Assembly: GCA_027022365.1 (NCBI GenBank)
Contig: JALVYU010000011.1
Span: 16,168-80,167, forward strand
Direction: 5' to 3'
Source of the DNA: Desulfurococcales archaeon
Lineage (GTDB): Archaea > Thermoproteota > Thermoprotei_A > Sulfolobales > Desulfurococcaceae
DNA length: 64,000 nucleotides
Each line of letters begins with the position of its first letter. Within the stretch, counting starts at the first letter, position 1. A program made the translations under genes and the position numbers. Below the pieces are notes generated by a model. That model worked only from the letters and a program-made list of their open reading frames with translations. It did not search any database and had not been told where the DNA came from. Positions 13,137-55,598 of this stretch are shown piece after piece.

Positions 13137-13325
13137 TTAGCCACAGATCGGGTAGTCGTCCGGCACTTTAGCCCTGAAGTACTTACCGGTCTCAGGGTCC
13201 TGGAATAGTCCTACCTTAACGCCCTTCCTGCCCTTTGGGCTAAGCTGCCATACCTTCTTGGGTACTAGCTCTACCTCCTTTCCGCTGGGGGTCTTGACCT
13301 TGACTGCCTCGGTGCACGCGACCAT
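13137..13325 (-). CDS. cren7: chromatin protein Cren7
   Basis: '[53 protein letters not shown]' is near-identical in pattern to Sulfolobus Cren7. Start moved to the second ATG (62 aa), which follows a GGTGAT Shine-Dalgarno-like element. The ORF track extends to 13346. Confidence 0.85.
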
Positions 13326-13382
13326 TGCTATCACCGTACTATACATTAGAGTGTTATGGGTTATTTAACTTTTTCCTATCAG

Positions 13383-13546: not shown

Positions 13547-14935
13547 TTATTTTTTGTCAAGAACATCCAGCTGGTACTTGCCCTCATTAAGTAGCCTGTC
13601 CCAGAGTCTCTCGACAACTTTGTGGACGTATTCGAGTGCTTTGGCCTCGTCTATTGTGAGGACTTTCCTGTCCTCCATAATTATTCTGCCATTAACAATT
13701 ACTGTTTTAACGTCTTTGCCCGTAAACGTGTTGACAATGTGACCATATACAGTCTTCTCATTAACAGGTGTTGGCGGTAGTTCTGGCCTAATTATTATGA
13801 CATCGGCTTTCTTACCCGCTTCCAAGCTTCCGAGTTCTTTCTCTACACCGAACATTTTAGCGACGTTTATTGTCGCCATCTCAACGATCTCCTGTGGCGT
13901 CATGAGCCGTGGGTCGAGATTCCATACTTTGTGTATAAGGTAAGTTGTCCTCATGTTCTCGAACACATCGAAGATGTATCCATCATTGCCTATGCCGACG
14001 TTAATCCCCATCTTCATCATTAACGGTATTCTCGGTACACCTACTGCATTGAGCATGTTGCTCATGGCATTGTGTGCGACATGTGCTCCGCTTTCCTTTA
14101 TAAGTTTCAGCTCGTCATCATTGGCGTGGACGACATGTACTAGTATAACGTCCGGGCCTAGGAATCCGAGTTTGTGCATCCTCTCTATAGGTCTTATACC
14201 GTATCTTTCCATGTTATGATATACGTCTACAAGTCCTTCCTCCACATGTATTGAGAGCAGTGCACCGTATTTGTTGGCGATCTCACGGGCCATCCTGAAG
14301 AGGTCATCAGTCACGGTGAAGCTTGCATGTAAGTATATTGCGCCTTTCACAAGTTTTGACGGATCATTATTGTTTTTCTTAATGAAGCGCTCATTCTCCT
14401 TTACCCCTCTGATCCCCTCCTCAATGCTACGCCTCTGTGTGGCTTCAAATGTGAGTATTCCTCGTATACCGACCTCATTTACAGCTTTCTCCATGTGGTC
14501 GAGGACGCCCTCGATCGCATTAGGACTACTTATGTTATCGAAGAACATTGTTGTCCCTGATTTGACGAAGTCGAGAGAACCTATGAGTGCGGCAGCATAT
14601 GCGTCCTCATAGGTCAGCAGTACGTCCAGTGCCCACCATATTCTCTGCAGGTTCTGAATGAAGTCGGTGGGCGGCTCTATTTTGGCGAACCAGGGGCTTG
14701 CGCGTAGTAGTTCTCCGTAGAAATGAGTATGCGCACATAGGAATCCAGGCATTACTACTCCTTTCTTTGCATCGATCACTTTCTCAGCATCGTACTTGTC
14801 CTTGCCGTCTCCCTTACCTATGCCCACGATCTTGTCTTCGTCTATGGCGACGTAGCCATCGGGTATTATTCTGCGTTTATCGTCCATTGTTACTATTAGT
14901 CCATTGTTTATAAGAATCGAGACCTTCTCCTTCAT
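13547..14935 (-). CDS. amidohydrolase, SsnA / chlorohydrolase-type
   Basis: 'VMPGFLCAHTHFYGELLRA', 'LQRIWWALD', 'HVEEG', 'VHVVH' and 'GNDG' are amidohydrolase metal ligands. The HxHxY motif and the WW segment match my recollection of E. coli SsnA. Confidence 0.7.
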   Translation of the reverse strand: MKEKVSILINNGLIVTMDDKRRIIPDGYVAIDEDKIVGIGKGDGKDKYDAEKVIDAKKGVVMPGFLCAHTHFYGELLRASPWFAKIEPPTDFIQNLQRIWWALDVLLTYEDAYAAALIGSLDFVKSGTTMFFDNISSPNAIEGVLDHMEKAVNEVGIRGILTFEATQRRSIEEGIRGVKENERFIKKNNNDPSKLVKGAIYLHASFTVTDDLFRMAREIANKYGALLSIHVEEGLVDVYHNMERYGIRPIERMHKLGFLGPDVILVHVVHANDDELKLIKESGAHVAHNAMSNMLNAVGVPRIPLMMKMGINVGIGNDGYIFDVFENMRTTYLIHKVWNLDPRLMTPQEIVEMATINVAKMFGVEKELGSLEAGKKADVIIIRPELPPTPVNEKTVYGHIVNTFTGKDVKTVIVNGRIIMEDRKVLTIDEAKALEYVHKVVERLWDRLLNEGKYQLDVLDKK

Positions 14936-15088
14936 GATATCACCTTGCCTAAATGAAATCTTAGCGTGACGAAATTATAATCTTATCATGAAGAATGGCG
15001 AGAATGATCGATATTACGATTGACATTATTCCATAAATAGTGAGGACTGTAAGGAGAAAGAGAAAAAGAATTGTGGGTTAAGACAATA

Positions 15089-16075
15089 TTACTGGTCGGG
15101 TATTATCCTTGTTCCTGCCTTGCCCTTGAGTGCCTCGTATGCCTGCGATAGATGAGCTATGATTGCCTGTTTACCGCCGTTCTTGATGAATCTTATTGCC
15201 GCTAGTACTTTGGGCCCCATGCTTCCAGGCTTGAAGTGGCCTTCCTTATAGTATTTCTCTGCTTCGCTAACAGTCATTACATCGATCGGCTTCTGCTGTG
15301 GTGTTCCATAGTTTAGGTATACTTTCTCAACGTCAGTAAGTATCATGAAGGTCCCGGCACCGATTGCTGTCGCCAGCCTCTCGCCGGCAAGGTCTTTGTC
15401 GATCACGGCTTCTACGCCGTGGAGCCATCCTTTATCGTCAAAGTATACTGGGATTCCTCCTCCACCGCTGGCTATAACGATGAATCCTTCGTCGAGAAGC
15501 CTCTTTATAGCTTCTATCTCCACGTGTCCCTTGGGGTCTGGTGAGGGCACTACTCTTCTCCAGCCGCCGCGCGGGTCAGGCTTTACTGTCCAGCCGAATT
15601 CTTCTGCGAGCTTCTTAGCTTCTTCCTCATCGTACCATGGCCCGATATACTTTGTCGGGTTCTGGAATGCTGGATCGTCTTTCTCAACTATGGTCTGCGT
15701 CACAATTGTGACAACTCCCTTGATCTTCCCGTTGTTGAGTAGTCCTTTCTCTTTGAGCTTGTTGTATAGGCTCTGCTGGATCAGGTATCCAAGCCATCCC
15801 TGGCTCATAGCGCCTGCGATGTCAAGAGTCATTACATCCAGGTTCTTGAGCTTCTTGCCAGCAAGCATCCACTCTGCGATAATACCTACCTGTGGGCCGT
15901 TACCATGTGTGATTGCGACCTTGTAGCCCTCCTCGAGTATCTTTACGAGAAACTCGGCACTCTTGTAGGCGTTCTTCCAGTAGTTCTCGGGGGTGCCGCG
16001 TTCTCCCTTGGTCTGGAACGCGTTGCCACCAAATGCGACGACTATGTACTTCTCCTTACGATCCATCTGGTACAC
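15089..16075 (-). CDS. arcC: carbamate kinase
   Basis: '[10 protein letters not shown]', '[10 protein letters not shown]' and 'ASGGGGIPV' are classical carbamate kinase motifs. Confidence 0.9.
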
Positions 16076-16151
16076 CTTCTCGGCGTTTTTGCTAGTATAT
16101 CTTTTCTTTTCAAGATAATATGGTTAAAAAATCCTAATGTGGCAGTATAGC

Positions 16152-16931
16152 CTAGATCATAAATCCCGGTAATCCGTCCGGTCTAAATGCTTTCCTAGGC
16201 TTTAATCCGTATCTCTTCATAAGATCTACGACGTGCGGGTAAAGGATAACGTATTCAGGATCTATTGACTCTGGAAGGCTAGGATCTATCGATTTAAGTT
16301 TCTCGACAAACCATTTAATGTTCTCAGGCTCTGAGAAGCTAAGCATTATTGCCGGGTATACCCTCTCGCCGGGCTCGAGACCCGCGTCGACTAGATTTTC
16401 GAGGGCTTTGAACTGATAATCGTAAAATTTCTTCGAAGCACCTGTCAGCCTCTCGAACTCATCGGGTGAAGCGCCTTTAAACGATACTCTTACGATAACC
16501 GATTTGTGGATCGCCAGTTTTTCCGCGAACTTCTTGTCACGGCCTATGAGGAGACCGTTTGTCTCTAGAACAAATAGGTAATCAGTCTCATCGACTATAT
16601 CAAGTAGTTGTAATAGATGATTTTGTGAAAGCGTTGGCTCACCACCGCTTAGACGTAGATACTTGTACCCTCTTCTCGATGCAATATTAGTCAATCTATG
16701 GAAAACCTGATATGCATTATAGAATCTGCCATCCTTGTATCCATGGCTGTACCTCCATGACCAGCAGAACTTGCACCTAAGATTACATCCTACAACATCG
16801 CCTGTTGCTATACCTCCATACCACTTGCCCCCACGAAACCTATAGTACATCCTATACTCCATGCCGTTCCTTACCCGCACAATTTTTCCTCTAACTTTCT
16901 CAGCAAGCATGAATGGATCGAATCCTGTCAT
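16152..16931 (-). CDS. radical SAM protein (small, archaeal type)
   Basis: CxxxCxxC cluster motif 'GCNLRCKFCWS' and the SAM-binding segment 'LRLSGGEPTL'. The start ATG overlaps the upstream gene's TGA (ATGA). Confidence 0.8.
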   Translation of the reverse strand: MTGFDPFMLAEKVRGKIVRVRNGMEYRMYYRFRGGKWYGGIATGDVVGCNLRCKFCWSWRYSHGYKDGRFYNAYQVFHRLTNIASRRGYKYLRLSGGEPTLSQNHLLQLLDIVDETDYLFVLETNGLLIGRDKKFAEKLAIHKSVIVRVSFKGASPDEFERLTGASKKFYDYQFKALENLVDAGLEPGERVYPAIMLSFSEPENIKWFVEKLKSIDPSLPESIDPEYVILYPHVVDLMKRYGLKPRKAFRPDGLPGFMI

Positions 16932-17875
16932 AACTCATTCCTCAGACAAGAACCAGGTTGTTCTAGAATGTGTGAGAATCGTATCAATATTGTCTCTACT
17001 GCACTGCTTCTACTCCTGCTTCTTGTCCTGAACAGACAATATATGAGCGATTGTATAATACCTGTCAGGCTTCCAAGTTTCCTCTTTGCCGAGGCATAGA
17101 TACAGCTAGTGCTGTATAGACAAGACCTGCAATCCAATCCTGACCTTAAACATTTCTTCTTGTTCGGCACTCTACCGCTAACGCCTATAGTACTAAGGAA
17201 TTCCATAAAATACCTGTCTACAGGAGCATAACTGGTTAATCCATATGTATGTAATAGGTATGCATGGACAGTCTTGACCCCGATTCCATCTAGCGAGAGT
17301 AGTTCGACGGCTTCTTCTATAGGATCATTTGCTTTGTCGAGGATCTTATCAAGATGAGCTATAAGTCTATTAAGTAGTTTCACCTGATACGATCCGGAGT
17401 CGACACTCCTGTGTTTAATGAATTCTTTCATCCATCTCAGTGTATTAATATAGTAATCTGTATTCATACTAAGAACTATTGATGCGATTATGAATTTTTT
17501 ATCGCCTGGCGACGAAGGAATACTTATTCTCCCAATACAATCTGGTGTAATATACCCGGATACTTTGTTCATAATACGAGGGTTAAGCCAAGCTCTTTCA
17601 TAGGATTTCACGCCTAATAATGAAAATATATCCTCTAAATCACATTCCTTCGGCATTCTGCACATTAGTTCAAGTTTTTCTTTGATGTAATTACACATGA
17701 GGCCTTTACAAACACCAGTTGTTTTTGTAAATACAAGTCTTCCGTCCTTATAATCCAGTTTGAAAAGCGGGAGCAAATATGAGTGGTAAAAGCTTAAGGC
17801 ATAATCAATGCCTCTAACAATAATTTTATCGTCCTCAACTAAAACGGTCATGGCATAATATTTATTTCCTAGCAC
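16928..17875 (-). CDS. HhH-GPD superfamily, endonuclease III-like DNA glycosylase homolog with an Fe-S cluster loop
   Basis: Helix-hairpin-helix 'LDGIGVKTVHAYLL' followed by 'APVDRY' (Lys and Asp at EndoIII catalytic positions). The C-terminal 'CLRSGLDCRSCLYSTSC' has the C-X6-C-X2-C-X5-C spacing. Confidence 0.6.
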   Translation of the reverse strand: MLGNKYYAMTVLVEDDKIIVRGIDYALSFYHSYLLPLFKLDYKDGRLVFTKTTGVCKGLMCNYIKEKLELMCRMPKECDLEDIFSLLGVKSYERAWLNPRIMNKVSGYITPDCIGRISIPSSPGDKKFIIASIVLSMNTDYYINTLRWMKEFIKHRSVDSGSYQVKLLNRLIAHLDKILDKANDPIEEAVELLSLDGIGVKTVHAYLLHTYGLTSYAPVDRYFMEFLSTIGVSGRVPNKKKCLRSGLDCRSCLYSTSCIYASAKRKLGSLTGIIQSLIYCLFRTRSRSRSSAVETILIRFSHILEQPGSCLRNEL

Positions 17876-17948
17876 ATGTTCTCCCCAATGATAAAGAAGA
17901 GAAGAAAGTAAAGAAAAAAGAGTGTTGGAGTATTGGTGGATAAAAGTT

Positions 17949-19019
17949 TTAGGCTTTGCTCCCCATCACCATGGCCATTACGGCCTTCTGGACGTGTAGA
18001 CGGTTCTCGGCTTCCTCGAAGTAGAGGCTCTTCTCGTAACTGTCTAGTACTTCGTCTGTTACCTCCTGTCCACGATCTGCTGGTCCACAATGCATGTAGT
18101 ACGGCTTGCCGGCCTTCTCTAGTCTCTCCATGGTCACTATCCAGTCCTTGAACTTGGCCTGATACTGCTTTGCGCCCTCCTTGTCTACAGTGCTGTTGAA
18201 CGGTGGGAAGAAGCCCTTCGGGCTCCATGCCTTCGGGTATACGAAGGTGGCGCCCTCGAATGCCTCGTCCATATCGTGCGTTATCTTGAACTCTGCGCCC
18301 CAGTGCTCGGTGTACTTCTTCACCTTCTCGATCACGTCGTCGAGTAGCTCGAAGCCTGGTGGGTGTGCAATGTATACGTCAGCACCTAGCATCGCGGCGA
18401 TGAGCGCTACGCTCTGGGGTACTGCTAGAGGCTTTAGTCCTCCGCTATAGGCATAGCTGACAACGAACTTCTTTCCTCTCAGGTCCTTAGGCCAGCCCAG
18501 GGCCTCGAGAGCTGCCTGAGCGTCTGCTAGGGCCTGGAATGGATGGTAGATGTCGTCCTCCATGTTTAGGACTGGCACGCTTGCCCACTTGGCGAACTCC
18601 TGTATGATCCTGTGTCCACGGCCGATGATCCACTTGGCCGGGTCACCATAGATTCTGATGGCGATTCCATCACCATATCTGCTTAGGACACGGGAGACAT
18701 CACGGATAGCCTCGGTCTGATAAGGCACCATGTCTTCGGGTAGTGTGGGCGTGTATACGTCGTGTGGCGATATGAAGATACCCATACCGCCTAGCTGGTA
18801 GATTCCTGTTTGGAAGCTGTTCCTTGTTCTAAGGCTCTTATTGTAGAATATCAGGTATAGAACCTTGCCCGGCAGGTATTTTGTCTCGACTTTTTGATGG
18901 AACTTCTCCTTCAAGTCCTTGGCTGCTTCTAGTACTTTGAGTATCGTATCGATATCATAGTCTGCATTGGAGAGCCAGTGCTTGCCTTCAAGATAACCTA
19001 CATACCATGGTTTGCTCAT
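17949..19019 (-). CDS. non-canonical carbamoyltransferase (AOTCase/SOTCase/YgeW-like class, substrate unknown)
   Basis: Carbamoyl-P motifs 'SLRTR' and 'HPFQALAD'. 'HCGPA' replaces HCLP, and 'VYPKAWSP' replaces the ornithine-binding DxxxSMG motif. Confidence 0.8.
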   Translation of the reverse strand: MSKPWYVGYLEGKHWLSNADYDIDTILKVLEAAKDLKEKFHQKVETKYLPGKVLYLIFYNKSLRTRNSFQTGIYQLGGMGIFISPHDVYTPTLPEDMVPYQTEAIRDVSRVLSRYGDGIAIRIYGDPAKWIIGRGHRIIQEFAKWASVPVLNMEDDIYHPFQALADAQAALEALGWPKDLRGKKFVVSYAYSGGLKPLAVPQSVALIAAMLGADVYIAHPPGFELLDDVIEKVKKYTEHWGAEFKITHDMDEAFEGATFVYPKAWSPKGFFPPFNSTVDKEGAKQYQAKFKDWIVTMERLEKAGKPYYMHCGPADRGQEVTDEVLDSYEKSLYFEEAENRLHVQKAVMAMVMGSKA

Positions 19020-19174: not shown

Positions 19175-20674
19175 GTGATCGCTATGAGGATTTCACGTCC
19201 CGCTAGAAGTATTGTAGGATTATGCCTACATAGCCCTGGAAACCCGTGCGAGAGAATTGGTCATCCAGAGCACTTGCTCATTCAATTATTCATCGATTAC
19301 TTGAAGAAAAAAAGAATACCTAAGCAAATAGTCCTAGCATATTATCCTATAGCCTTTCTAGAAGTATTTGACGAGAAAGGAATATTGGTCGACGCATATA
19401 CGCTTAAGAAGACAAAGATGCCTCTATGGTCTCCACCAATAACACTTCTGCTCAAATCTGTCGAGGAGATAGATACCTCATCCACGCATGATTTTATGAG
19501 AGGATTGAAGATAGTTAAGAGGCTTGCGACGGAGATCTATGCAGGAAAATACAGTGATATTGAGTACCAAGAAGTACCCGGCCTCATAACGGGAGGCATT
19601 AAAAATACCTTGGAGAATTTGTTCCCCATTGCCACGACGACCGGCCTTACAGGCCTAATGCTCGAACATGACGAAGGATATAGGAGCACAAAATACGTTT
19701 ATATAAGAACTATCACTTCGCTCGAAAACCTAATGTCTTTGACTCAGCAGGCTCACTCACTACTATTCAGGAAGTATAAGGAATGGATAACAAATATAAC
19801 GAGACATTATAACGAACGTTTCGGCGAATTAGAACTAAGTCTTGAAGAGACGAGAAAGATTGTTGACTCGAATATCCAGAATTTTAGTATGAAGATGAAT
19901 AATGAGATGAAACATATCGAAGAAAACTATCATTACAAGATAGAAAAATTATTGTTCAGAAGCACTCAGATCCAACGTGAACTAACTGAGATCAAAAAGA
20001 AGATCTCTGACCCAACATATGTCGATAAAGAAGAACTCCTGAGAGAAGAACTGAAAAGGCTGGAGAGAGAAAGAAAGCTCATCCTCAATGAGATAGAGGA
20101 GCTAAGACGAGAGGCCGAATCAGAGATCGATCTTGTTAAGAGGAAGTACTACAAACTCATAACAAAGGAGAGGAACAAGTTACAAGTTCTTGTAAAAGAA
20201 AAAAGAAACATAGAGCGTGAGATGAAGGGCAAAGTCAACCGTATATACATGATGTTCAAGGATGTTGAGAAATGTATAGATTACATATCGTCCAAACTTG
20301 CTGGCTTCCGTCGGATCTACGAGGACGCAATGATTCATAGCCCTGCTTTAGGCGAATCACTCTATTATCTAAATATTATCATCGCTTCCAACGAAAAGAA
20401 TACTTGGATTGTCCCCTCCTATGATGTTGTCATTGCTAACGGTAGTATCGGTATTTACAGGATCAAGGAGGTTGATAAAATTATCGAAACTGTTAAAAAG
20501 GATCTTACGAAAATAGTTCGTGCCGAGAAAGATAGGGTACTCATTTATAGGATGAATGACCTTATCGAGCAGAAGAAGGCTAAACAAATTCTTCATCATT
20601 TGTTGAAAAAATATGGTCTTAACAAGGATGTCGAGACAAAAATAGATAGGTTCATAGGGAGGCTCTATGAGTAG
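19175..20674 (+). CDS. coiled-coil hypothetical protein
   Basis: 499 aa with a long K/E/R-rich heptad-like central region ('EELLREELKRLERERKLILNEIEELRREAESEIDL'). The end overlaps the next gene's start by 8 nt. Confidence 0.5.
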   Translation: MIAMRISRPARSIVGLCLHSPGNPCERIGHPEHLLIQLFIDYLKKKRIPKQIVLAYYPIAFLEVFDEKGILVDAYTLKKTKMPLWSPPITLLLKSVEEIDTSSTHDFMRGLKIVKRLATEIYAGKYSDIEYQEVPGLITGGIKNTLENLFPIATTTGLTGLMLEHDEGYRSTKYVYIRTITSLENLMSLTQQAHSLLFRKYKEWITNITRHYNERFGELELSLEETRKIVDSNIQNFSMKMNNEMKHIEENYHYKIEKLLFRSTQIQRELTEIKKKISDPTYVDKEELLREELKRLERERKLILNEIEELRREAESEIDLVKRKYYKLITKERNKLQVLVKEKRNIEREMKGKVNRIYMMFKDVEKCIDYISSKLAGFRRIYEDAMIHSPALGESLYYLNIIIASNEKNTWIVPSYDVVIANGSIGIYRIKEVDKIIETVKKDLTKIVRAEKDRVLIYRMNDLIEQKKAKQILHHLLKKYGLNKDVETKIDRFIGRLYE

Positions 20675-21860
20675 TGAAGAGGAATGTTTCAACCGTAGAA
20701 ATGTCTATGCTCTTAGCGCTACAAGCTTATTAACCGATATCAGTAGCGAGTCCGTCTATGCAGTTCTTCCTTTCTATATCTTATCGCTTGGATACGGTAG
20801 GGATATAATAGGTTTTGTAGAAGGTCTTGGAGGATTTCTTGATAGCTTAATGCGGCTTATAAGTGGAAAACTAGCTGATCGTGTTGGGAAGTATAAGTTG
20901 CTCGCGACAACAGGTTATTTAATATCATCGGTTTCTAAGCCTTTCTTCGCTTTTACGAGTTCCTGGCCGATCATAGCACTCATCAGAGCTATTGATCGCA
21001 TCGGGAAAGGGATCAGGACATCCCCACGCGACGCACTATTATCTTTTAGCACGTCTCCAAAATACAGAGGTAAAGCCTTTGGACTACATCGGAGCCTAGA
21101 TACACTGGGTGCCATAATAGGTCCTCTGTTTGCATTCTTTATACTGCCGTTCCTAGGATTCGGTGGAGTCTTCATATTAAGCCTCGCCCCTGGGCTATTA
21201 GCGGTTCTCCTCATAGCAGCGATTGTCTCAGAGAAGGAACTATGTCTACGGAGTGAAGAGAGGAAGAAGTCGAGGACGGTGATTGCTGGCAAACTCCCAA
21301 GAGAATATTGGTTCTTCCTCTTGTCCGTGGGGATGTCTGGATTGTCGGGTTTTGGCCAAGCATTTCTTCTGATCAGATCAGTTGAGCTCGGCTGGAGCAA
21401 GGAATACAGTTTATTCTTCCTGATGATCTCTAATACTGTGTATGCCTTAACTGCTTATCCGGTAGGGCTTATCAGTGATAAGATGGGGGCTAGAAGAAAG
21501 TATCTTTATCCAATAGTTTTCATCCTTACATTCGTGACGGGAGTATTCCTAGCGATAATACAGTCTCCCTCCATGGCAATAATATCATTCATCATGCTCG
21601 GACTATACATGGCATTCAACGACACACTTAGACGTATAATCACTGGCCTTCTTCTACCAGTTAGGACACGTGGAACTGGTTATGGATACATGCATGGAAT
21701 ACATGGTTTAGCATATCTGGTCGGGAATACTATTCTCGGAAAACTGTATCAGATGTATGGAGCCACCATAGCGTTCACTTACATGTCATTAACGGCACTG
21801 ATCGGCTTTGTCACGGCGACATTGTTCTTAGTGGGGTTCTGGCGCTCAATTCTTAACTAG
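20667..21860 (+). CDS. MFS transporter
   Basis: About 12 predicted TM segments. 'GKLADRVGKYK' and 'ISDKMGARRK' are MFS loop 2-3 / 8-9 type motifs. Confidence 0.75.
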   Translation: MSSEEECFNRRNVYALSATSLLTDISSESVYAVLPFYILSLGYGRDIIGFVEGLGGFLDSLMRLISGKLADRVGKYKLLATTGYLISSVSKPFFAFTSSWPIIALIRAIDRIGKGIRTSPRDALLSFSTSPKYRGKAFGLHRSLDTLGAIIGPLFAFFILPFLGFGGVFILSLAPGLLAVLLIAAIVSEKELCLRSEERKKSRTVIAGKLPREYWFFLLSVGMSGLSGFGQAFLLIRSVELGWSKEYSLFFLMISNTVYALTAYPVGLISDKMGARRKYLYPIVFILTFVTGVFLAIIQSPSMAIISFIMLGLYMAFNDTLRRIITGLLLPVRTRGTGYGYMHGIHGLAYLVGNTILGKLYQMYGATIAFTYMSLTALIGFVTATLFLVGFWRSILN

Positions 21861-21885: not shown

Positions 21886-22839
21886 GTGGTGCGAATGGTC
21901 ACGAGCATGAAAGGCAAGCACTTCTTGACGTTAGCCGATTTCACACGTGAAGAACTAGAATTCATGCTAGACACTGCGAAAATGCTTAAAGAAAGATACT
22001 TGGCCGGAGAAAGGATCATACCGATACTAAGGGGGAGGCACCTAGCCCTCCTCTTTGAAAAACCTAGCACCCGTACAAGAATAAGCTTCGAAACAGCGAT
22101 GCTTGAACTAGGTGGTGACGCCTTATATCTGAACTGGAGAGACCTACAGTTAGGGAGAGGAGAAACGATCGAGGACACTGCGAGAGTCTTGTCGCGATAC
22201 GTAGACGGCATAATGGCTCGCGTATACGAGCACGAAAAACTCGTCAAACTAGCACAGTATAGCCGTGTCCCTGTGATCAACGGTCTTAGCGATCTGCTCC
22301 ACCCGGCACAGGCATTGACTGATATCTACACTATAATGGAGAAGAAAGGCACAGATCTCAGGAAGCTCAAAATAGTGTTCGTTGGTGATGGGAGAGACAA
22401 CGTGTTACATAGCCTCATGCTGGGAATAGGTATCCTGGGCGGGAAGATAATAATAGCTAGTCCCGAGGGATACGAACCCGATCCGAAAGTCGTGAAGATG
22501 TTCGAGGAAACAGCAGCACCTAACGGCGGTGAATACGAGATCATAAGGGATCCCGTCGAAGCCGTCAAGGGAGCCGATGTCGTATATACTGATGTCTGGG
22601 TGAGCATGGGCCAAGAATCGATCAAGGAGAAGAAAATACGTGATCTGAGCCCATACCAGGTTAACAAGGAGCTCATGAGCTATGCAAAGCCGGATGCCAT
22701 ATTCATGCACTGTCTGCCAGCGCATAGAGGACAAGAAGTGACCGATGAAGTAATTGATGGCAAATGGAGCGTGGTATGGGATCAGGCAGAGAACAGGAAA
22801 CATGTACAGAAAGCCATACTCGCGCTCCTAATACCTTGA
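21886..22839 (+). CDS. argF: ornithine carbamoyltransferase
   Basis: 'EKPSTRTRISFE', 'HPAQALTD', 'DVWVSMGQE' and 'HCLPAHRGQEV' give the full canonical OTCase motif set. Confidence 0.9.
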   Translation: MVRMVTSMKGKHFLTLADFTREELEFMLDTAKMLKERYLAGERIIPILRGRHLALLFEKPSTRTRISFETAMLELGGDALYLNWRDLQLGRGETIEDTARVLSRYVDGIMARVYEHEKLVKLAQYSRVPVINGLSDLLHPAQALTDIYTIMEKKGTDLRKLKIVFVGDGRDNVLHSLMLGIGILGGKIIIASPEGYEPDPKVVKMFEETAAPNGGEYEIIRDPVEAVKGADVVYTDVWVSMGQESIKEKKIRDLSPYQVNKELMSYAKPDAIFMHCLPAHRGQEVTDEVIDGKWSVVWDQAENRKHVQKAILALLIP

Positions 22840-30116: not shown

Positions 30117-31427
30117 TTGGACAACACTATCCTGATAAAGAATGCAAAATACATAATTACTCCCGACGAAGGAGGCGATAGAACATATATTCTTCGTGAT
30201 AAAGATATTCTTATAGAGAACGGTGTAATCATATGTATTTCTAGTTCATGTAGTGAATTCTCTCCTCGCGGAACCATCAGAATAAATGCAGATAAACACG
30301 TGGTAATGCCGGCTATGATTAACTGCCACACGCATGCAGCCATGAAAATATTCAAGGGCAGTCTTCCAGACAAGGAGTTTTGGGAATGGCTGGACAAGAT
30401 CGTCAAAATAGAAGAAAAGGTCATTACTAAGGAACTAGTGTATCAGGGATCTAAACTAGCTTCTATTGAAATGTTATTGAATGGAATCATAGGCTTTATT
30501 GACATGTACTATTATCCAGACGAGACCGTCAAGGCCGCATCAGAGTATGGGTTGCTTGTTAGGACAGGGCCATACAGGCCGGATAATGCATATGCGGTAC
30601 TGTCGATCATAAAAAATTATCCTAACGGATATCCGCTCATAAACATTCATAGCCTGTACAAGAACGATCCAGAAATTATTGATAAAATGTACGCATTAGC
30701 CGAAGAACATGGTTTACCCATCCACATACATGTCTCCGAGACACGTAGAGAAGTGTATCTTATACGTCGGGAGACGGGGAAATGGCCTATACAGTACATG
30801 TATAGTAATGGGTGGTTAAACGAGAATGTTATACTTGTGCATCTTAACTGGGTTCTAAGCTCGGAGATTCCTTTGATCAAAGAAAAGAACACTAAGGTCG
30901 TGAATTGTCCGCACTCAGCAATGAGGCTCGCAGAGGCCGGTTTCTGTCCGGTGTACGAAATACTTCGTGAAGGCATTATTCTCGGCGCGGGTACGGATGG
31001 ATCTAGCGGTGACAGATACAATTTGTTGGACGAGATCAGAATGATGCTTCTCTTATACCGTCATAATTACTGGGATACAAGGCTTAAACTCCCATATCTC
31101 TTCTCTAAGATCACGACCAACTCCTACAAGATCTTTGGTATCAAGGGTGGCGTGATAAAACCGGGTTGGCCAGCGCATTTGTCCCTGTTCAAAATAGACA
31201 ATATCCGGCATAGACCCTTAGGTACTAGTAACTTGTTGGCAAGCCTTATATTGGGTGGCGGTGCTGAAGCCGACTATGTAATGATAAATGGAGGTTTAGT
31301 CCTCACTCCTGAGATGAAGACCAAACTTTACACTGATGCGGAGATAGTGTCGGATGAGATTGAGGAAAAACTGATGAGGATCATAGATTACTATGAAGGT
31401 GTGCCAATTGAACGAAAAACAATATAG
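30117..31427 (+). CDS. amidohydrolase, MtaD/TRZ-ATZ-type (nucleoside/nucleobase deaminase-like)
   Basis: 'VVMPAMINCHTHAAM', 'IHVSET', 'LVHLN' and 'GTDG' are metal ligands. Confidence 0.75.
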   Translation: MDNTILIKNAKYIITPDEGGDRTYILRDKDILIENGVIICISSSCSEFSPRGTIRINADKHVVMPAMINCHTHAAMKIFKGSLPDKEFWEWLDKIVKIEEKVITKELVYQGSKLASIEMLLNGIIGFIDMYYYPDETVKAASEYGLLVRTGPYRPDNAYAVLSIIKNYPNGYPLINIHSLYKNDPEIIDKMYALAEEHGLPIHIHVSETRREVYLIRRETGKWPIQYMYSNGWLNENVILVHLNWVLSSEIPLIKEKNTKVVNCPHSAMRLAEAGFCPVYEILREGIILGAGTDGSSGDRYNLLDEIRMMLLLYRHNYWDTRLKLPYLFSKITTNSYKIFGIKGGVIKPGWPAHLSLFKIDNIRHRPLGTSNLLASLILGGGAEADYVMINGGLVLTPEMKTKLYTDAEIVSDEIEEKLMRIIDYYEGVPIERKTI

Positions 31428-31842
31428 AAAACTAGCTATAGCCGCTGTTATAGCGACTTTCACGGCATTTATATCATCTATTATAGCATATGTTCGTGGT
31501 TACGGTAGAATTTATGCTGGCTACGCGTTTTTCTGGCTATTAATGTTCCTGCTAGACTTGTACTTGCTGAAACACCCGCCAGAACTGAGATCAGAAGGAA
31601 TTGATTGCAAATATCTTGAGGAGCTAGCCCGTATAATAGCTGGTCTGGAAGACAAGTATAGTATGGCTAAGAAAGCATCAAGGATGCTTAGCGAAGGCCT
31701 CACAGACAAGATCAGGGCTATCTGTGGAGATAATACACTATCACTACTGAACCGACTATTGGAGGGCGATGAAAGTATTAGGGAAAAACTTATTGAAGCA
31801 CTGGATAACTGTTATGCTACTCGTTGTCGTGAAGCGAGATAA
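31393..31842 (+). CDS. hypothetical membrane-anchored protein
   Basis: Two N-terminal hydrophobic helices. Overlaps both neighbours, so the exact extent is uncertain. Confidence 0.3.
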   Translation: MKVCQLNEKQYRKLAIAAVIATFTAFISSIIAYVRGYGRIYAGYAFFWLLMFLLDLYLLKHPPELRSEGIDCKYLEELARIIAGLEDKYSMAKKASRMLSEGLTDKIRAICGDNTLSLLNRLLEGDESIREKLIEALDNCYATRCREAR

Positions 31843-32626
31843 TCCATCGCATCCTTGCGTGTTTGAGAACAGGGATTAGCTTCCTTGCATCATAAACGCT
31901 CTCCTTATCAATGCTGATCTCCACGTATCCAGGCCTTGGACCTAGATCAATTATCCTATAGCCGTAAGGGCTAAATACACCGCTTCGACCAACATATTTT
32001 TCACCGCTATGGCTCGACAATATGATATAAATAGTGTTTTCATGGGCTCTTGTCACCAAAATATGTTCTAGGATTTCTTCTTTTAGCGGTCCTCTAACCC
32101 ATCCCGCCTGTACGATCACGGATTCAGCTCCTTTCAAAGCATATGTTCTGAAGAGCTCGGGGAACCTGATATCATAACATATTGCAAACCCTGCCTTCAC
32201 TCCCGCTAACTCGACTATCTGCGACGGCGACTCGCCGGGTATAAAATAATCCGATTCCCTATACCCATAAGCGTCGAATAGATGTATCTTCCTATAAACA
32301 GGCTCAATCCTTCCCGATGGGTGGATTAGAACTGTTGTGCTTCGAGATAATGGCGGTGTATCGGTTTTCTCGATAAGGTGTGCAACTATGATTGCAGAGT
32401 ATTTCAGTGCCATATCAGATAGACTAGATAGATACGCACTATCTTCGAGGGGCTCAGCGATATCGTATACTCGTTCTGGTTTAAGTGATAATACATCCGC
32501 CATAGAGTACTCGGGGAGAACAACTATATCTGCCATATTGTAGCTACGATCAAGTATTTCTCCCGTGATCTTCAAGTTCTCTATGGGATTTATACCGTAT
32601 CCTGCCTGCAGAACACCAACTATCAT
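31817..32626 (-). CDS. carbon-nitrogen hydrolase (nitrilase superfamily)
   Basis: The Glu-Lys-Cys triad contexts are 'VVLPEYS', 'YRKIHLFD' and 'FAICYDIRFPE'. Confidence 0.8.
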   Translation of the reverse strand: MIVGVLQAGYGINPIENLKITGEILDRSYNMADIVVLPEYSMADVLSLKPERVYDIAEPLEDSAYLSSLSDMALKYSAIIVAHLIEKTDTPPLSRSTTVLIHPSGRIEPVYRKIHLFDAYGYRESDYFIPGESPSQIVELAGVKAGFAICYDIRFPELFRTYALKGAESVIVQAGWVRGPLKEEILEHILVTRAHENTIYIILSSHSGEKYVGRSGVFSPYGYRIIDLGPRPGYVEISIDKESVYDARKLIPVLKHARMRWIISLHDNE

Positions 32627-33535: not shown

Positions 33536-34324
33536 GTGTATATGGATTTGATGAATTCATCTGTGGAGAGGATACTGAAAGCCTTCGACCTCTCAGTAAA
33601 ACGTATGCTTTCAATGAAAGGTCTTGACAGCAGGTTCATAATCCTAGGCACTGTAATGACGTATGTCTGGCTCGCCGTTATGGTGTTTATGAATATCTAT
33701 GATCCCAACAACATATTCCTACAGCTAATAGGAATGATAACAGGTTTCGTGGGTCTTACCGTTATTTTTGCTTTTCAAGTAATCCTCTCCTACAGGATAT
33801 GCGAACATGTAAAACTCGCGGGATATTATATCTCCTACGCCAGGGACATCATATCATTGGCCAGTAAGGAAGTCCTACAAGAATATGACGAGTTCCTAGA
33901 GGAGGCTTACCTATATAAGTGTCCACATACAGAGTACAGCCCCTTAGCACTGATCCTTGGTTATCTAGCCATACTATCCATGTACATCTATATCGCGCCT
34001 CTCTTCTATGCTGGATACTTGGCCATACTCGGTATTTTCGCATACACATTATATGATGCGGTCATAGAGCATCAAGAGATCGAGAGAAAAGTCAATAGGC
34101 TTCTCCTCAAGCTTATCGGCATGGATGATGAGACAATGTCTTTCCATGAACCGCCAGATTTTAAACCAACATATGTATTGACCACCGTGTTTACTCTAGG
34201 GCTACATTTATTCGTCTGGTTATCGTGGATTAATTCCTACCTTGATGCCCACATAGTCGACCATAGGAGAATGTATGAATTATTCAAAAAACGGTATGTC
34301 AGCATGTACTTGAGCCGGTCATGA
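33536..34324 (+). CDS. hypothetical integral membrane protein
   Basis: Several hydrophobic helices. No family call. Confidence 0.45.
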   Translation: MYMDLMNSSVERILKAFDLSVKRMLSMKGLDSRFIILGTVMTYVWLAVMVFMNIYDPNNIFLQLIGMITGFVGLTVIFAFQVILSYRICEHVKLAGYYISYARDIISLASKEVLQEYDEFLEEAYLYKCPHTEYSPLALILGYLAILSMYIYIAPLFYAGYLAILGIFAYTLYDAVIEHQEIERKVNRLLLKLIGMDDETMSFHEPPDFKPTYVLTTVFTLGLHLFVWLSWINSYLDAHIVDHRRMYELFKKRYVSMYLSRS

Positions 34325-36301
34325 AGCCTTAATTGTCCCAATATCATCAGGGATCTTATAGCCGGGGAGCAGCGAAGCGATCTTCTTAATACGTTCTTTG
34401 TCACGAATATATTCTATGAAGGCCTTCACATACTCCTTGTCTAACCTATTCTTGTGTATTAGGAAGTCGTATTCCTCCCACGCCAATGGTATGAAATCTA
34501 ATCCGTAGAGGTAGGCTGCAGCCTCTATCGCTATGCCTGCATCTGCTCTTCCATGCTTTACTGCGGCGGCGACAGCCGTGTGTGTTTTCACCTCATAGGT
34601 GTAGCCGTTGATCATCTTTTTAACATCGTCAAAACTCAACCCTTTCTTCTCAGCTACTCTGTGGAGAAGGATATCCAGGAGAACTCTGGCGCCTGCCCCC
34701 CTTGTCCTGTTGACTATTCTGATATCATTTCTTAGGAAATCCTCTATGCTGTGTATGTTTTTCGGATTGCCTTCCTGGACGACTATACCTATCTTTCTAT
34801 CATATCCTCTAATGATGACTGCTTTACCCTTCAAACCATATTTGTCTAGGAACGGTGTATTGTATTTCCCTGTTTCCTTATCGAGAAGATGTGTGGGCGC
34901 TATATCGGCCTCACCTCTGATAACGGCTTTCCAACCTCCCGTGCTCCCCGTCACGATCACTCTAGAAATACTTCTTAATCCTGATTCGGCGAGAATACGG
35001 TGGATCAACATGTCGTTGCTACCTATAATGTTTAGTTTACTGAATCCTCTCGTCTCATCGAATAACTCCACAGTAACTTCTTCATCTTCTATCAGTAGAT
35101 CTCTATCTTCAGGTAAGACCACGTATCCATCACTATTGTATAGAGGCGATATCGCACCGCTCCTCATAGAGACGGGGTAGGCCGTTAATCCTTTCTCTGA
35201 CTCGACGAGTGCAACGGGCAGTAGCCATGTCTTGCCTAGGGGTTTCTTGACCCTATAGGGAAGCCTAGCCTTTAGCCTGTATGTTCTTGTCCTCTTTAAG
35301 CCAAGCATAGACGCCACTATGGGCCTGACTATCACGTTGAATATCATAAAGCATGACAAAGGAAACCCGGGAAGACCGAACAATAATTTATTCTTGGCGA
35401 CAGCAACAACTGTTGGTTTTCCGGGCTTTACCTTGAGGCCATGTATAATTATTCCAGGCTCACCCATGTTCTCGAACACCCTATAAACCAGGTCTCCCAC
35501 CCCAGCGCTTGTTCCCCCACTGGTTATGACTATATCTGCCCATCTCAGCGCGTCATCAATCGCATCGTATACTTCATCGTAGTCGTCGGGGAGATGGCCC
35601 ATGAACCTTGCGTCCGCCCCTATTTGTTTGAGTCCTGATGTGATGAGCTGGCCGTTAACATCATAGACTTTTCCCGGGCTTAGCTTCTTCCAGGGCTCTA
35701 TGACCTCGTCACCGGTCGAGAAAACCGCTATCTTTGGGGGGATGTAGGTCTTTATCCTGGTTATTCCCAGACCTGCGAGTAAACCTATCTCTCTGAATCC
35801 TAGTCTTGTGCCCGCCTCGAGGACGAGGTCTCCGAACGATATATCGTTTCCTGTTGAAGAGATGTTTTCTCCAGGTACGACGCTCCTATATATCTCGACC
35901 TCATCGTTAAGCCTACGCGTGTACTCGACCATGACAACAGCGTCTGCCCCTCGCGGGATCATCGCGCCCGTCGCTATCTCAGCCGTTTCTCTTGGACCTA
36001 TGCTTATATCGGGGTGTTGGCCAGGCTTAACTACACCTACTATTTTCAAGCGCATTGGATGAAGATCGTCCGCCCCTGCAAGATCCTCGGATCGCACCGC
36101 GTACCCGTCGACTAGACTTCTGTCAAAAGGAGGGTGATCGATGGGTGAATATATGTCTTCGGCCAATACTCTTCCTAGAGCCTCCGTTATATTTACCTCC
36201 TCTATACCGAGCGGTTTGAGCGGATAGTATCGCTCTATAATCTTCATGGCATCATTGAGAGACACTAGTTTATGGAAAATCCTTCTCTCCGGCACTTCCA
36301 A
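34319..36301 (-). CDS. moeA: molybdopterin molybdenumtransferase MoeA fused to a periplasmic-binding-protein-like (molybdate-binding type) C-terminal domain
   Basis: MoeA N-terminal, MoCF and C-terminal domains ('DRSLVDGYAV', 'ITSGGTSAG', 'GLPGFPLSC'), then a roughly 240-aa PBP-like extension. Confidence 0.85.
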   Translation of the reverse strand: MEVPERRIFHKLVSLNDAMKIIERYYPLKPLGIEEVNITEALGRVLAEDIYSPIDHPPFDRSLVDGYAVRSEDLAGADDLHPMRLKIVGVVKPGQHPDISIGPRETAEIATGAMIPRGADAVVMVEYTRRLNDEVEIYRSVVPGENISSTGNDISFGDLVLEAGTRLGFREIGLLAGLGITRIKTYIPPKIAVFSTGDEVIEPWKKLSPGKVYDVNGQLITSGLKQIGADARFMGHLPDDYDEVYDAIDDALRWADIVITSGGTSAGVGDLVYRVFENMGEPGIIIHGLKVKPGKPTVVAVAKNKLLFGLPGFPLSCFMIFNVIVRPIVASMLGLKRTRTYRLKARLPYRVKKPLGKTWLLPVALVESEKGLTAYPVSMRSGAISPLYNSDGYVVLPEDRDLLIEDEEVTVELFDETRGFSKLNIIGSNDMLIHRILAESGLRSISRVIVTGSTGGWKAVIRGEADIAPTHLLDKETGKYNTPFLDKYGLKGKAVIIRGYDRKIGIVVQEGNPKNIHSIEDFLRNDIRIVNRTRGAGARVLLDILLHRVAEKKGLSFDDVKKMINGYTYEVKTHTAVAAAVKHGRADAGIAIEAAAYLYGLDFIPLAWEEYDFLIHKNRLDKEYVKAFIEYIRDKERIKKIASLLPGYKIPDDIGTIKAS

Positions 36302-54266: not shown

Positions 54267-55598
54267 CTAGGATAATCGATAGACAGTGTTCAAAAACTCC
54301 CTTCCCTTATCAGTTAACCTATATTTTCTAATACCCTGCTCCACATACGATTTGATAAGCCCCATTTTCTCCAGCTCTCTAAGATGCTGGTAGACGGCCT
54401 GAACAGATATCTTCACCCCGAGGAGCTTCCACAAGCCGTAACCATGTATGGGCTCGTTCTCCGCTATTTTCTCAAGGATAATTAACTTAGTAGACGGGGG
54501 GAATACGCTTATCTCGCTTCTCGCACGACTAGGCCTGCTATAGGCTTTCGGGCCTTTCAAGCCGTGGCCCGTCAATACAACGACTGTATCGCCCTCTAGT
54601 TGTTCGGAGAGCTTCAGGACTCCGGCAAGTGCTACGGCTGAGGATGGCTCAACAAATAACCCCTCGTTCCGTGCTAGAAGCTTAGCGGCTCTAAGTAATT
54701 CCTTCTTAGAGACCGCCAGTACATCGCTCCTACTCAGGATCTTCGATATTTTGTCTTTAACCGGAGAATCTGAGTACATGAGGCCCGGTGGAGGCTCTTC
54801 ACGACATCCATATGGTATGCCGAAGATTCTTGAATAAACGGGGTTTCCGCAGCTCTCGATCCCTATGAGTCTCGGCATAGTTGATATTATTCCTCGATCA
54901 TACATTTCCTTGTATCCATGATATACGCTATAGAGTGTTATGCCTGAACCTAGAGGTACTACAATGTTCTTGGGGACCTTCCCTAGTTGCAGGTATATTT
55001 CTATACCTATGGTCTTAAGGCCCTCGATAGATAATGGGTTGTGGGATGTTGAGCCCGGATAAGCTTTCATCTCGGGAATCTTCTTCGAGACAATATCCAG
55101 TAGTTCATCTATTGTTTTATCAAGAACCTTTACGTGTGCACCGTACGCTTTCATAAGGAGTATTTTCTCGGGATCTGTTTTCCTTGGAACCACGACGTAC
55201 GCTTTGATCCCAGCCCTAGCACTATAGGCCGCTACGCTTGAACCCATATTGCCATCGCTTGCTAGTAGAATTTTCTTTTCCCCAAGACTACTGGCATGAC
55301 TAACGATCAGAGCGGCCGCTCGATCCCTGAAACTACCTGTCGGGTTTCTCCCTTCATCCTTGAAGTAAACGGGTAGATTCTTGAAGAGCCTTGTAGACCT
55401 TATTAGTGGTGTCCATGCTTCGCCAAGACTTATCTTTGTCTCTATATCGGGTAGTATTGGTGAGAAGCTCCATATGTTGGATCCCTTGAACCTTGTCCAC
55501 TTCCATTTATGCCCAGGATGCATTATTTCTCTGCAAATAGGGCACTTCATAACGGGTGTTACTGTGCTGTAGCCGCATCGTGGACATATGAAGAACAA
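54267..55598 (-). CDS. threonine synthase-like (fold-type II PLP) protein with an N-terminal zinc ribbon and a C-terminal PadR-like wHTH. The Schiff-base Lys is replaced by Arg.
   Basis: 'CPRCGY..CPIC'. 'YFKDEGRNPTGSFRDRAAA' sits where ThrC has NPTGSFKDRG; Arg91 is codon AGG at 55326-55328. The C-terminus 'IHGYGLWKLL....VYQHLRELEKMGLIKS....RKYRLTDKGREFL' is PadR-like. Confidence 0.75.
   Translation of the reverse strand: MFFICPRCGYSTVTPVMKCPICREIMHPGHKWKWTRFKGSNIWSFSPILPDIETKISLGEAWTPLIRSTRLFKNLPVYFKDEGRNPTGSFRDRAAALIVSHASSLGEKKILLASDGNMGSSVAAYSARAGIKAYVVVPRKTDPEKILLMKAYGAHVKVLDKTIDELLDIVSKKIPEMKAYPGSTSHNPLSIEGLKTIGIEIYLQLGKVPKNIVVPLGSGITLYSVYHGYKEMYDRGIISTMPRLIGIESCGNPVYSRIFGIPYGCREEPPPGLMYSDSPVKDKISKILSRSDVLAVSKKELLRAAKLLARNEGLFVEPSSAVALAGVLKLSEQLEGDTVVVLTGHGLKGPKAYSRPSRARSEISVFPPSTKLIILEKIAENEPIHGYGLWKLLGVKISVQAVYQHLRELEKMGLIKSYVEQGIRKYRLTDKGREFLNTVYRLS

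Follow-up and report, generated by a model that had tools for sequence, protein, structure and literature searches.

The 64 kb stretch of the Desulfurococcales archaeon contig JALVYU010000011.1 analysed here (hereafter the window) carries on its minus strand genes for a transcarbamylase (TCase), a carbamate kinase (CK), an SsnA-like amidohydrolase and a PreA-like Fe-S flavoenzyme (reductase). We favour, with moderate confidence, the view that these four genes constitute the core of a ferredoxin-linked archaeal version of the anaerobic pathway that degrades purines of the uric acid/2,8-dioxopurine type reductively. All four can be assigned to protein families, and their linkage is conserved in related genomes. 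The same minus-strand genes had been picked out in a sequence-only reading of this DNA, which proposed a candidate ATP-yielding module, and all four open reading frames exist as it gave them:

17949-19019, minus strand: HCGP-type TCase, 356 aa, with both OTCace domains of Pfam (PF02729 and PF00185)
15089-16075, minus strand: CK, TIGR00746 (arcC), 403 bits against a cutoff of 358
13547-14935, minus strand: SsnA-like amidohydrolase, top NCBIfam models NF005540 and TIGR03314
11670-12917, minus strand: PreA/DHODH-family Fe-S flavoenzyme (the reductase), 415 aa, PF01180 plus Fer4 domains

The bacterial pathway encoded by the ygeW-yqeA and ygfK-xdhD region of Escherichia coli was reconstituted in 2025 (PMC12507026; bioRxiv 10.1101/2025.04.24.650524). 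XdhD reduces urate to 2,8-dioxopurine (PMC12507026; bioRxiv 10.1101/2025.04.24.650524), which is dearomatised by YgfK or, in Clostridioides difficile, by the PF01180-family and apparently ferredoxin-dependent enzyme UacX (PMC12507026). YgfK or UacX acts with SsnA as a coupled pair that takes 2,8-dioxopurine to ureidomethylhydantoin (PMC12507026), and the product of the reductase is seen only when SsnA is present (PMC12507026; bioRxiv 10.1101/2025.04.24.650524). Subsequently, HyuA yields 2,3-diureidopropionate, YgeW phosphorolyses one ureido group, YqeA makes ATP, and YgeY and YgeX complete the route to pyruvate (PMC12507026; bioRxiv 10.1101/2025.04.24.650524). An unknown 'dehydrogenase X1' had been linked with ssnA, hyuA, ygeW, ygeY, xdh and yqeA already in 2013 (PMC4016543). 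In the archaeal variant, the PreA/UacX-like reductase would reduce, and thereby dearomatise, an oxopurine-type ring in a ferredoxin-dependent manner. The SsnA-like amidohydrolase would open the reduced ring hydrolytically, pulling the unfavourable reduction forward and exposing a ureido group, the TCase would cleave this group with phosphate to form carbamoyl phosphate, and the CK would convert carbamoyl phosphate and ADP to ATP, NH3 and CO2. That the PreA-like gene could supply a ring-reduction step, as the sequence-only reading suggested, fits the pairing of UacX or YgfK with SsnA in the 2025 biochemistry (PMC12507026).

Homologous families exist for the four archaeal steps in the bacterial pathway (E. 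coli xdhD-ygfM, ygfK, ssnA, hyuA, ygeW, yqeA, ygeY as well as ygeX; C. difficile UacX and UacY), and the two systems share the adjacency of the reductase and SsnA genes and that of the TCase and CK genes, to which archaeal relatives of the locus add XDH-type (xanthine dehydrogenase), hydantoinase-like and YgeY-family genes. However, the archaeal system belongs to hyperthermophiles and its TCase is not an orthologue of YgeW; many of its clusters encode two TCases in tandem and usually no YgeY, ThrC-like and CysK-like pyridoxal-phosphate (PLP) enzymes are found instead of YgeX, and the reductase is of the ferredoxin type and lacks the catalytic cysteine loop. Within its 64 kb, the window covers four of the eight functions of the reductive uric acid pathway.

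When one genome per GTDB species was scanned, 299 relatives of the TCase were returned, and 80 loci were retrieved with flanks of up to 10 kb. Neighbours were counted within 10 kb of the TCase in 81 loci by tBLASTn and clustering of open reading frames (ORFs). The genes are co-conserved, a point on which the sequence-only reading had asked for a check: a CK gene is present in 37 loci, a true SsnA-like gene in 25 and a reductase gene in 28. In 21 loci, no more than 200 bp separate the TCase gene from the CK gene downstream of it, and 34 of the 37 CK genes have the same orientation as the TCase gene; in the window the CK gene follows at a distance of 1.9 kb, also on the TCase strand. A gapless same-strand run encoding a second transcarbamylase (TC2), the HCGP-type TCase, CK, the SsnA-like amidohydrolase, the reductase and a ThrC-like PLP enzyme is present in about 20 Desulfurococcales loci (Zestosphaera and relatives). 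In the window's own clade and two Thermogladius isolates, the order is TCase, a 315-aa protein, a radical-SAM enzyme, CK, an EamA transporter (in Thermogladius), SsnA-like amidohydrolase and reductase; gene order and strand are kept from the clade to the isolates, with TCases 82–83% identical. The nearest relative, locus L002 from a Desulfurococcales metagenome-assembled genome (MAG), shares about 91% DNA identity with the window over 21 kb. The reductase gene directly follows the SsnA-like gene in every locus whose contig continues, and in the window the cren7 gene intervenes. Because the same four families adjoin in many independent genomes, their grouping is more than chance. Once the TCases are dereplicated at 90% identity, giving 31 groups, the following neighbours are found within 10 kb:

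ThrC-like PLP enzyme: 20 of 31 TCase groups
CK: 15 of 31
TC2: 15 of 31
Reductase: 12 of 31
SsnA-like amidohydrolase: 10 of 31
CysK-like PLP enzyme: 7 of 31
XDH-type Mo subunit: 5 of 31
Hydantoinase-like enzyme: 5 of 31
Adenine deaminase: 4 of 31
TRZ/ATZ deaminase: 4 of 31
BMP-type (nucleoside) ABC transporter: 4 of 31
YgeY-type hydrolase: 2 of 31

Counted by locus, the XDH-type neighbours, comprising XdhA/PucD-like Mo, FAD and 2Fe-2S subunits, occur in 10–13 loci, a dihydroorotase/allantoinase/hydantoinase-like (HyuA-like) enzyme in eight, an adenine deaminase (TIGR01178, 587 bits against 472) in six and a YgeY-family hydrolase (NF009555, 350 bits against 321) in two. One locus, L043, carries nearly the whole pathway set in a single run, encoding, in order, hydantoinase-like enzyme, adenine deaminase, deaminase, TC2, TCase, CK, SsnA-like amidohydrolase, reductase, CysK-like enzyme, ThrC-like enzyme and YgeY. 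Searches with E. coli queries bore out these homologies; they found no homologue of YgeX, YgfK or PreT in any of the 81 loci, and no NAD(P)H module or Pyr_redox-type partner near the reductase.

The four genes are also under strong purifying selection. The ratios of nonsynonymous to synonymous substitution (dN/dS), computed against the L002 orthologues, are 0.024 for CK, 0.027 for the TCase, 0.028 for the reductase and 0.047 for the SsnA-like amidohydrolase. These are the lowest values in the neighbourhood, below those of phosphoglycerate kinase (PGK), ornithine transcarbamylase (OTC), glyceraldehyde-3-phosphate dehydrogenase (GAPDH) and AglB, and the inserted gene for the 315-aa protein has a ratio of 0.26.

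Judged by its sequence, the TCase is a distinct and very conserved archaeal family, with 66–98% identity across phyla, and neither a YgeW, an N-acetylornithine transcarbamylase (AOTCase) nor an OTC. Its NCBIfam scores fall below the curated cutoffs for AOTCase (NF003384, 246.5 against 288), OTC (218 against 306 and 214 against 281) and YgeW (NF005538/TIGR03316, 139.9 against 453 and 139.2 against 500), and the putrescine transcarbamylase (PTC) model gives 163. AOTCase provides both the best hidden Markov model (HMM) and the best PDB sequence match, and in pairwise comparison the TCase is 36% identical to the AOTCase of Xanthomonas, 34% to the OTC of the same genome, 30% to YgeW of E. coli and 33–36% to archaeal TC2. 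That the protein is not an OTC had already been recognised in the sequence-only reading and is borne out by the absence of the DxxxSMG motif, in whose place stands YPKAWSPK, and by HCGP in place of HCLP. An alignment of 13 sequences from Desulfurococcales, Hadarchaeota, MSBL1 and Caldarchaeales, in which identities range from 66 to 88%, has a mean column identity of 76%, and the motifs SLRTRNSF, HPFQ, YAYSGGLKPLAVPQ, YPKAWSP and HCGPxDRG are invariant in it; the otherwise near-universal HxLP motif is thus HCGP throughout the family. Relatives recovered by protein search are 66–99% identical, and their named sources are Desulfurococcales (among them Desulfurococcus amylolyticus, Thermosphaera and Staphylothermus marinus), Hadarchaeota and MSBL1. 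In a neighbour-joining (NJ) tree, which, like the other NJ trees used here, has few reference sequences and no bootstrap or other support values, the HCGP proteins group in a single tight clade that lies outside OTC and close to AOTCase.

The TCase retains all carbamoyl-phosphate-binding motifs along with the loop rich in proline and the extended 120's loop of the knotted transcarbamylase group. Like AOTCase (Xanthomonas campestris, PDB 3KZC), it has extended 80's and 120's loops, the latter of the same length in the alignment; its proline loop, SGGLKPLAVPQ, aligns with those of AOTCase and YgeW, and K263 and E154 correspond to the AOTCase carboxylate anchors K252 and E144. However, the specificity triad of AOTCase, E92/N185/K302 in X. 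campestris numbering (PMC4581275), is T102/P197/E319 in the TCase and invariant as such in 22 family members (YgeW has G/P/E), HCGP replaces HCLP, and the gene lies beside that for CK and not in an arginine cluster. The separate NJ clade, the altered triad and the non-arginine neighbours place the TCase outside the anabolic group of AOTCase and N-succinylornithine transcarbamylase (SOTCase), membership of which would have spoken against a catabolic module. With YgeW (PDB 3Q98/2YFK), the TCase shares a catabolic context beside CK and SsnA genes, the proline loop (KPL(A/S)VPQ; KPLSVPQ in YgeW), the 240's-region motif VYPK(A/S)W(S/A)P (VYPKSWAP in YgeW) and the substrate-site residues K196 (YgeW K203), P197 (P204), K263 (K270) and E319 (E344), of which K203 and K270 are carboxylate anchors in YgeW. 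In contrast to YgeW, it has 356 instead of 396 residues, lacks the extra terminal helices, the C-terminal extension and the 240's-loop insertion, and has a long rather than a short 80's loop, and the YgeW residues Q98, D124, Q160 and S200 differ. Hence, the assignment of the TCase specifically to the YgeW type, as made from the sequence alone, does not hold at 30% identity and 140 bits against 453, apart from these shared substrate-site residues. The AlphaFold2 model (pLDDT 79.8), in which the specificity and knot loops are poorly defined and of low confidence, matches OTC, PTC and AOTCase structures alike in a Foldseek search of the PDB (TMq 0.73–0.79). Since the carboxylate anchors are conserved, the second substrate is probably a carboxylate-bearing ureido compound, and ureidomethylhydantoin, 2,3-diureidopropionate and albizziin or its isomer are candidates. 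In public records the family is labelled 'ornithine' or 'N-acetylornithine carbamoyltransferase'; these names are probably wrong, and the OTC name can lead astray those who reconstruct the arginine metabolism of MAGs. An 86%-identical TCase also occurs together with CK on a contig binned as 'candidate division Kazan bacterium' (L010), which looks like a mis-binned archaeal contig.

The identity of the CK, as read from the sequence alone, is confirmed by a full-length match (residues 9–325) above the curated score of TIGR00746 (403.2 bits against 358.25), and the protein is 43% identical to E. coli YqeA. For the amidohydrolase, the two SsnA models are the best by more than 100 bits (NF005540, 404 bits; TIGR03314, 387 bits; next family, 285 bits), so that the proposed SsnA likeness stands as regards the closest family, although the scores remain slightly below the cutoffs of 444 and 455.5. 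Over 434 residues the protein shares 33% identity with E. coli SsnA, and an NJ tree that also included GuaD, HyuA and archaeal paralogues groups E. coli SsnA with the archaeal SsnA-like clade, which is separate from the deaminase-type paralogues and GuaD. E. coli SsnA scores 153–202 bits against this clade and 82–113 bits against the deaminase-type paralogues, and both the archaeal proteins and E. coli SsnA have the motifs CxHxHFY, PxxDF...WW.LD, HNAxSNM and G(N/T)DG. The candidate ATP-yielding module is thus supported by the position of the TCase outside the anabolic transcarbamylases, by the co-conservation of the genes and by the grouping of the amidohydrolase with SsnA.

The reductase consists of a DHO_dh FMN domain (PF01180) and a C-terminal 2x[4Fe-4S] domain; its true start is probably M11, at about position 12887. 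Its best model is PreA (NF006183), at 197.6 bits far under the cutoff of 335, its identity to E. coli PreA is 28%, and among solved structures the FMN domain of pig dihydropyrimidine dehydrogenase (DPD) comes closest to it. The architecture is that of the PF01180 proteins PydAc and UacX, namely an FMN domain with [4Fe-4S] ferredoxin domain(s) and no FAD/NAD(P)H module (PMC7332683, PMC12507026), and the single ferredoxin domain is as in E. coli PreA and the Clostridium pasteurianum PydAc variant (PMC7332683). Near the N-terminus it has about 25 extra residues, inserted after the first strand in comparison with PreA, and an invariant FSTHY takes the place of the catalytic SCP loop (FSCPQ in E. 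coli PreA). The catalytic acid and the substrate may therefore differ from those of DPD and dihydroorotate dehydrogenase (DHODH).

The pathway probably runs in the catabolic direction, because the TCase adjoins CK, and a TCase next to CK is a recognised mark of catabolic enzymes (PMC4581275). A phosphorolytic TCase pulled by CK, with one ATP per ureido group, is also found in the arginine deiminase, agmatine/putrescine TCase, allantoin/oxamate and Rubrobacter ureidoglycine TCase fermentations; the TCase family and the upstream enzymes of the window differ from these, and genes for arginine deiminase, for agmatine deiminase or of the allantoinase type are absent from the window. That the substrate is a purine and not a pyrimidine is suggested by the SsnA type of the amidohydrolase and by the purine-specific accessory genes in relatives of the locus.

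Several observations weigh against an intact purine route in this organism. The assignment of the archaeal members to a pathway draws on homology and gene context; the SsnA-like and PreA-like proteins score below curated cutoffs, the reductase lacks the canonical catalytic cysteine loop, so that its chemistry may differ, and it was likened to C. difficile UacX (Q181U4) by described architecture. No homologues of XdhD, HyuA, YgeY or YgeX are present in the 64 kb window, nor are the ThrC-like and TC2 genes found beside the TCase in other loci; a search for pathway genes across the window returned just a TRZ/ATZ amidohydrolase that is unrelated, a CN-hydrolase of the Nit type and a housekeeping ThrC. 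Three unrelated genes interrupt the module, and in a simple pattern search every gene shows a TATA-like box of its own, a result that is no more than suggestive; co-transcription is therefore doubtful. In addition, the OTC encoded 3 kb away could be the partner of the CK in this genome, and in Hadarchaeota the TCase has no CK, SsnA or reductase within 10 kb, from which it follows that the substrate of the TCase need not come from the SsnA reaction. Given this reduced and interrupted gene set, the remaining steps are encoded elsewhere in the genome or absent, or the route is truncated, or the substrate differs.

A rival reading is reductive catabolism of pyrimidines (or orotate) with ATP yield, in which a ferredoxin-dependent dihydropyrimidine or dihydroorotate dehydrogenase and an amidohydrolase that opens dihydrouracil or dihydroorotate would precede phosphorolysis of N-carbamoyl-beta-alanine or N-carbamoyl-aspartate by the TCase and ATP formation by the CK. 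Such a set of four steps mirrors PyrB-PyrC-PyrD in reverse and suits a single-ring substrate, as it needs neither a hydantoinase nor a xanthine dehydrogenase, both of which are missing from the 64 kb; the nearest solved relative of the reductase is a dihydropyrimidine dehydrogenase, and PydAc, of similar architecture, is a proven ferredoxin-dependent uracil reductase (PMC7332683). However, the amidohydrolase is of the SsnA type and not of the dihydropyrimidinase/dihydroorotase type, its pairing with the reductase is a hallmark of the purine route (PMC12507026), and the reductase lacks the catalytic cysteine loop of both DPD and PreA. Also, the TCase is not aspartate transcarbamylase-like, with 25–30% identity to PyrB, and the extra neighbours seen in relatives are purine-specific (adenine deaminase, XDH-type, YgeY and hydantoinase-like genes), with no uracil or cytosine genes seen among them. 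Hence, we regard pyrimidine breakdown as unlikely. The same cluster run in reverse, as a de novo pyrimidine-like biosynthesis, was set aside as the leading explanation since the accessory genes of the relatives are purine-catabolic.

An anabolic role, in which CK would act as a carbamoyl-phosphate synthase (as proposed for Pyrococcus) and feed OTC and an AOTCase-like TCase for arginine synthesis next to unrelated SsnA-like and PreA-like genes, would account for AOTCase as the best NCBIfam model and PDB match of the TCase, for argF lying 3 kb away in the window's clade, and for the database names of the family. Yet the AOTCase triad is T/P/E in the TCase and the score is under the cutoff, no arginine biosynthesis genes flank the TCase in any locus, this genome already has a canonical OTC, in most lineages the TCase-CK pair is joined in one run to the genes for the SsnA-like amidohydrolase and the reductase, with no OTC nearby, and a TCase beside CK is a mark of catabolic enzymes (PMC4581275); we consider this role quite improbable. 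A transcarbamylase for LysW-ornithine was likewise rejected, no LysW, ArgX, LysZ, LysY, LysJ or LysK being present among the annotated conserved neighbours. Finally, the four genes might be no working unit in this genome but the remnant of a larger ancestral cluster with separate roles, for instance with CK serving OTC and the amidohydrolase deaminating nucleosides or bases. That three unrelated genes, each preceded by a promoter-like element, interrupt the cluster and that other pathway genes are lacking in the 64 kb would agree with such decay, as would the close relative L004, in which TCase and CK are kept and other genes replace the SsnA-like and reductase genes, and L017, which has no CK. 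On the other hand, the four genes are all intact, their dN/dS values (0.024–0.047) are the lowest of the region, their order and strand are kept as far as the Thermogladius isolates, with TCases 82–83% identical, and the SsnA-reductase adjacency survives the insertion of cren7, so a remnant too appears very unlikely.

In the literature, archaea are unmentioned in both 2025 papers on the pathway (PMC12507026; bioRxiv 10.1101/2025.04.24.650524), targeted full-text searches found no report of a reductive purine pathway in archaea, and the sole archaeal purine breakdown found in the literature searched is a proposed oxidative route in haloarchaea. The reductive purine chemistry, solved in 2025 in gut bacteria only, and the homologous SsnA, CK and reductase families are thus known; what appears to be new is an archaeal version with an uncharacterised TCase family (often two in tandem), other PLP enzymes and a putative ferredoxin-type electron input. 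If true, anaerobic hyperthermophiles would obtain ATP from nucleobases through substrate-level phosphorylation. The window's arrangement is also present in cultured Thermogladius isolates, and proteins 77–82% identical are attributed to D. amylolyticus, Thermosphaera and S. marinus, which makes the reading directly testable.

The neighbours of the TCase in other loci allow a more far-reaching, tentative proposal. TC2 (about 345 aa; motifs STRTR, HPTQ and HV(L/M)P) is a second unclassified transcarbamylase family, encoded in tandem with or near the HCGP-type TCase in 35 of the 81 loci (L041:8838-9872; e.g. also L022, L043 and L072) and absent from the window. An NJ tree placed TC2 beside YgeW, but its scores against YgeW equal those of the HCGP type (138 against 140 bits by HMM; 141–159 against 129–150 bits by BLAST), and orthology is not claimed. 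The presence of two TCases with one CK, with YgeY usually missing, may mean that both ureido groups are cleaved with phosphate. The ThrC-like PLP enzyme, of the PRK08197 type with a zinc ribbon at its N-terminus (L041:15039-16313; 36 further loci, among them those of Hadarchaeota and Caldarchaeales), is the commonest neighbour of the HCGP-type TCase, even where CK, SsnA and reductase are not nearby, and may replace YgeX; the window's own ThrC (54267-55598, PRK05638 type) is 36% identical to it and not adjacent to the TCase. We speculate, with less conviction than for the four-gene core, that hyperthermophilic and subsurface archaea (Desulfurococcales, Hadarchaeota, Caldarchaeales and MSBL1) ferment purine bases by a remodelled reductive pathway, with the HCGP type and TC2 each phosphorolysing one ureido group to give two ATP per purine (one in bacteria), the ThrC-like enzyme replacing YgeX and carbamoyl phosphate being channelled at 80–95 °C. 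At such growth temperatures carbamoyl phosphate is, as known from the work on CK/OTC channelling in Pyrococcus, very labile, and tight coupling between TCase and CK would therefore be expected. If this fermentation takes place, the substrate of the window's TCase would be new for its class, e.g. ureidomethylhydantoin or albizziin.

Further genes accompany the cluster in particular lineages. In the loci L039-L062, a gene for a HIT-family nucleotide hydrolase lies directly upstream of that for TC2, and the cluster is followed downstream by a pair of ribose-1,5-bisphosphate isomerase-like genes and a gene for a PfkB-family kinase (e.g. L041:18382-20425); the isomerase-like and kinase genes resemble the pentose-bisphosphate route for nucleoside ribose. 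In Hadarchaeota (L065, L067 and L074-L078; the loci concerned also include L068-L070, L072 and L077), the TCase gene lies either beside genes for an AOR-family tungsten enzyme, a YgfS-like polyferredoxin and a PurC-like protein, or beside genes for CoxLMS-like XDH-type subunits. CoxLMS-like genes are easily read as those of a CO dehydrogenase, and it may be worth re-examining such annotations for purine hydroxylases.

In the window, seven minus-strand genes fill 11.6–19.0 kb, with PGK and then type II GAPDH beyond the reductase, and genes for a 499-aa coiled-coil protein, a major facilitator superfamily (MFS) transporter, OTC and AglB lie upstream of and divergent from the TCase. The sequence-only reading was correct on the four candidate pathway genes and overlooked the radical-SAM, EndoIII-like and cren7 genes. 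Besides the four genes listed above, the locus comprises:

16928-17875, minus strand: gene for a 315-aa EndoIII/Ogg-like protein, between TCase and CK, with weak PDB profile matches
16152-16931, minus strand: gene for a small radical-SAM enzyme, 259 aa, PF04055 (67 bits), no NCBIfam model near its cutoff
13137-13346, minus strand: cren7 chromatin protein gene, 69 aa, PF11520 (119 bits)
19175-20674, plus strand: coiled-coil protein, 499 aa, without family match, divergent and upstream of TCase
20667-21860, plus strand: MFS transporter, PF07690, divergent from TCase
21886-22839, divergent from TCase: argF (OTC), OTC model 434 bits against 306

The argF gene, about 3 kb from the TCase, is a separate and canonical OTC gene, as the sequence-only reading had it, since its product carries DVWVSMG and HCLP and exceeds the curated score. 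The coiled-coil and MFS genes are kept divergently upstream of the TCase in the window's clade, where the MFS ORF cluster stands beside the HCGP-type TCase in 10 loci, and the transporter is tentatively a candidate carrier of substrate or product. The cren7 gene falls within the 630 bp that separate the SsnA-like gene from the reductase gene; it is outside the module and supports a crenarchaeal (Thermoproteota) origin, and its position shows that the module is not one tight operon in the window. Farther away are a second TRZ/ATZ-type amidohydrolase gene (30117-31427, plus strand), deaminase-like and under all cutoffs, a convergent gene for a Nit-type carbon-nitrogen hydrolase (31817-32626, minus strand) and a gene for a MoeA-PBP fusion for molybdenum/tungsten cofactor insertion (34319-36301, minus strand), none of which is kept near the TCase in relatives.

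The genes for the 315-aa protein and the radical-SAM enzyme overlap by 4 nt and are probably not members of the pathway. The former occurs in 14 loci, only in the window's clade and Thermogladius/Staphylothermus relatives (L002, L004, L005, L008, L011 and L014-L019 are among the loci with the pair), and the latter in 13, invariably paired with the former. The 315-aa protein has no Pfam or NCBIfam match even at E = 5, and a profile search of the PDB gave weak matches to Ogg and EndoIII only (E 0.07–0.17). It looks like an HhH-GPD protein of the EndoIII/Ogg type: K201 and D220 are spaced as expected, there is a C-X6-C-X2-C-X5-C loop, and the N-terminus has an additional 4-Cys motif. The two translationally coupled genes may encode an uncharacterised base-excision or base-modification pair.

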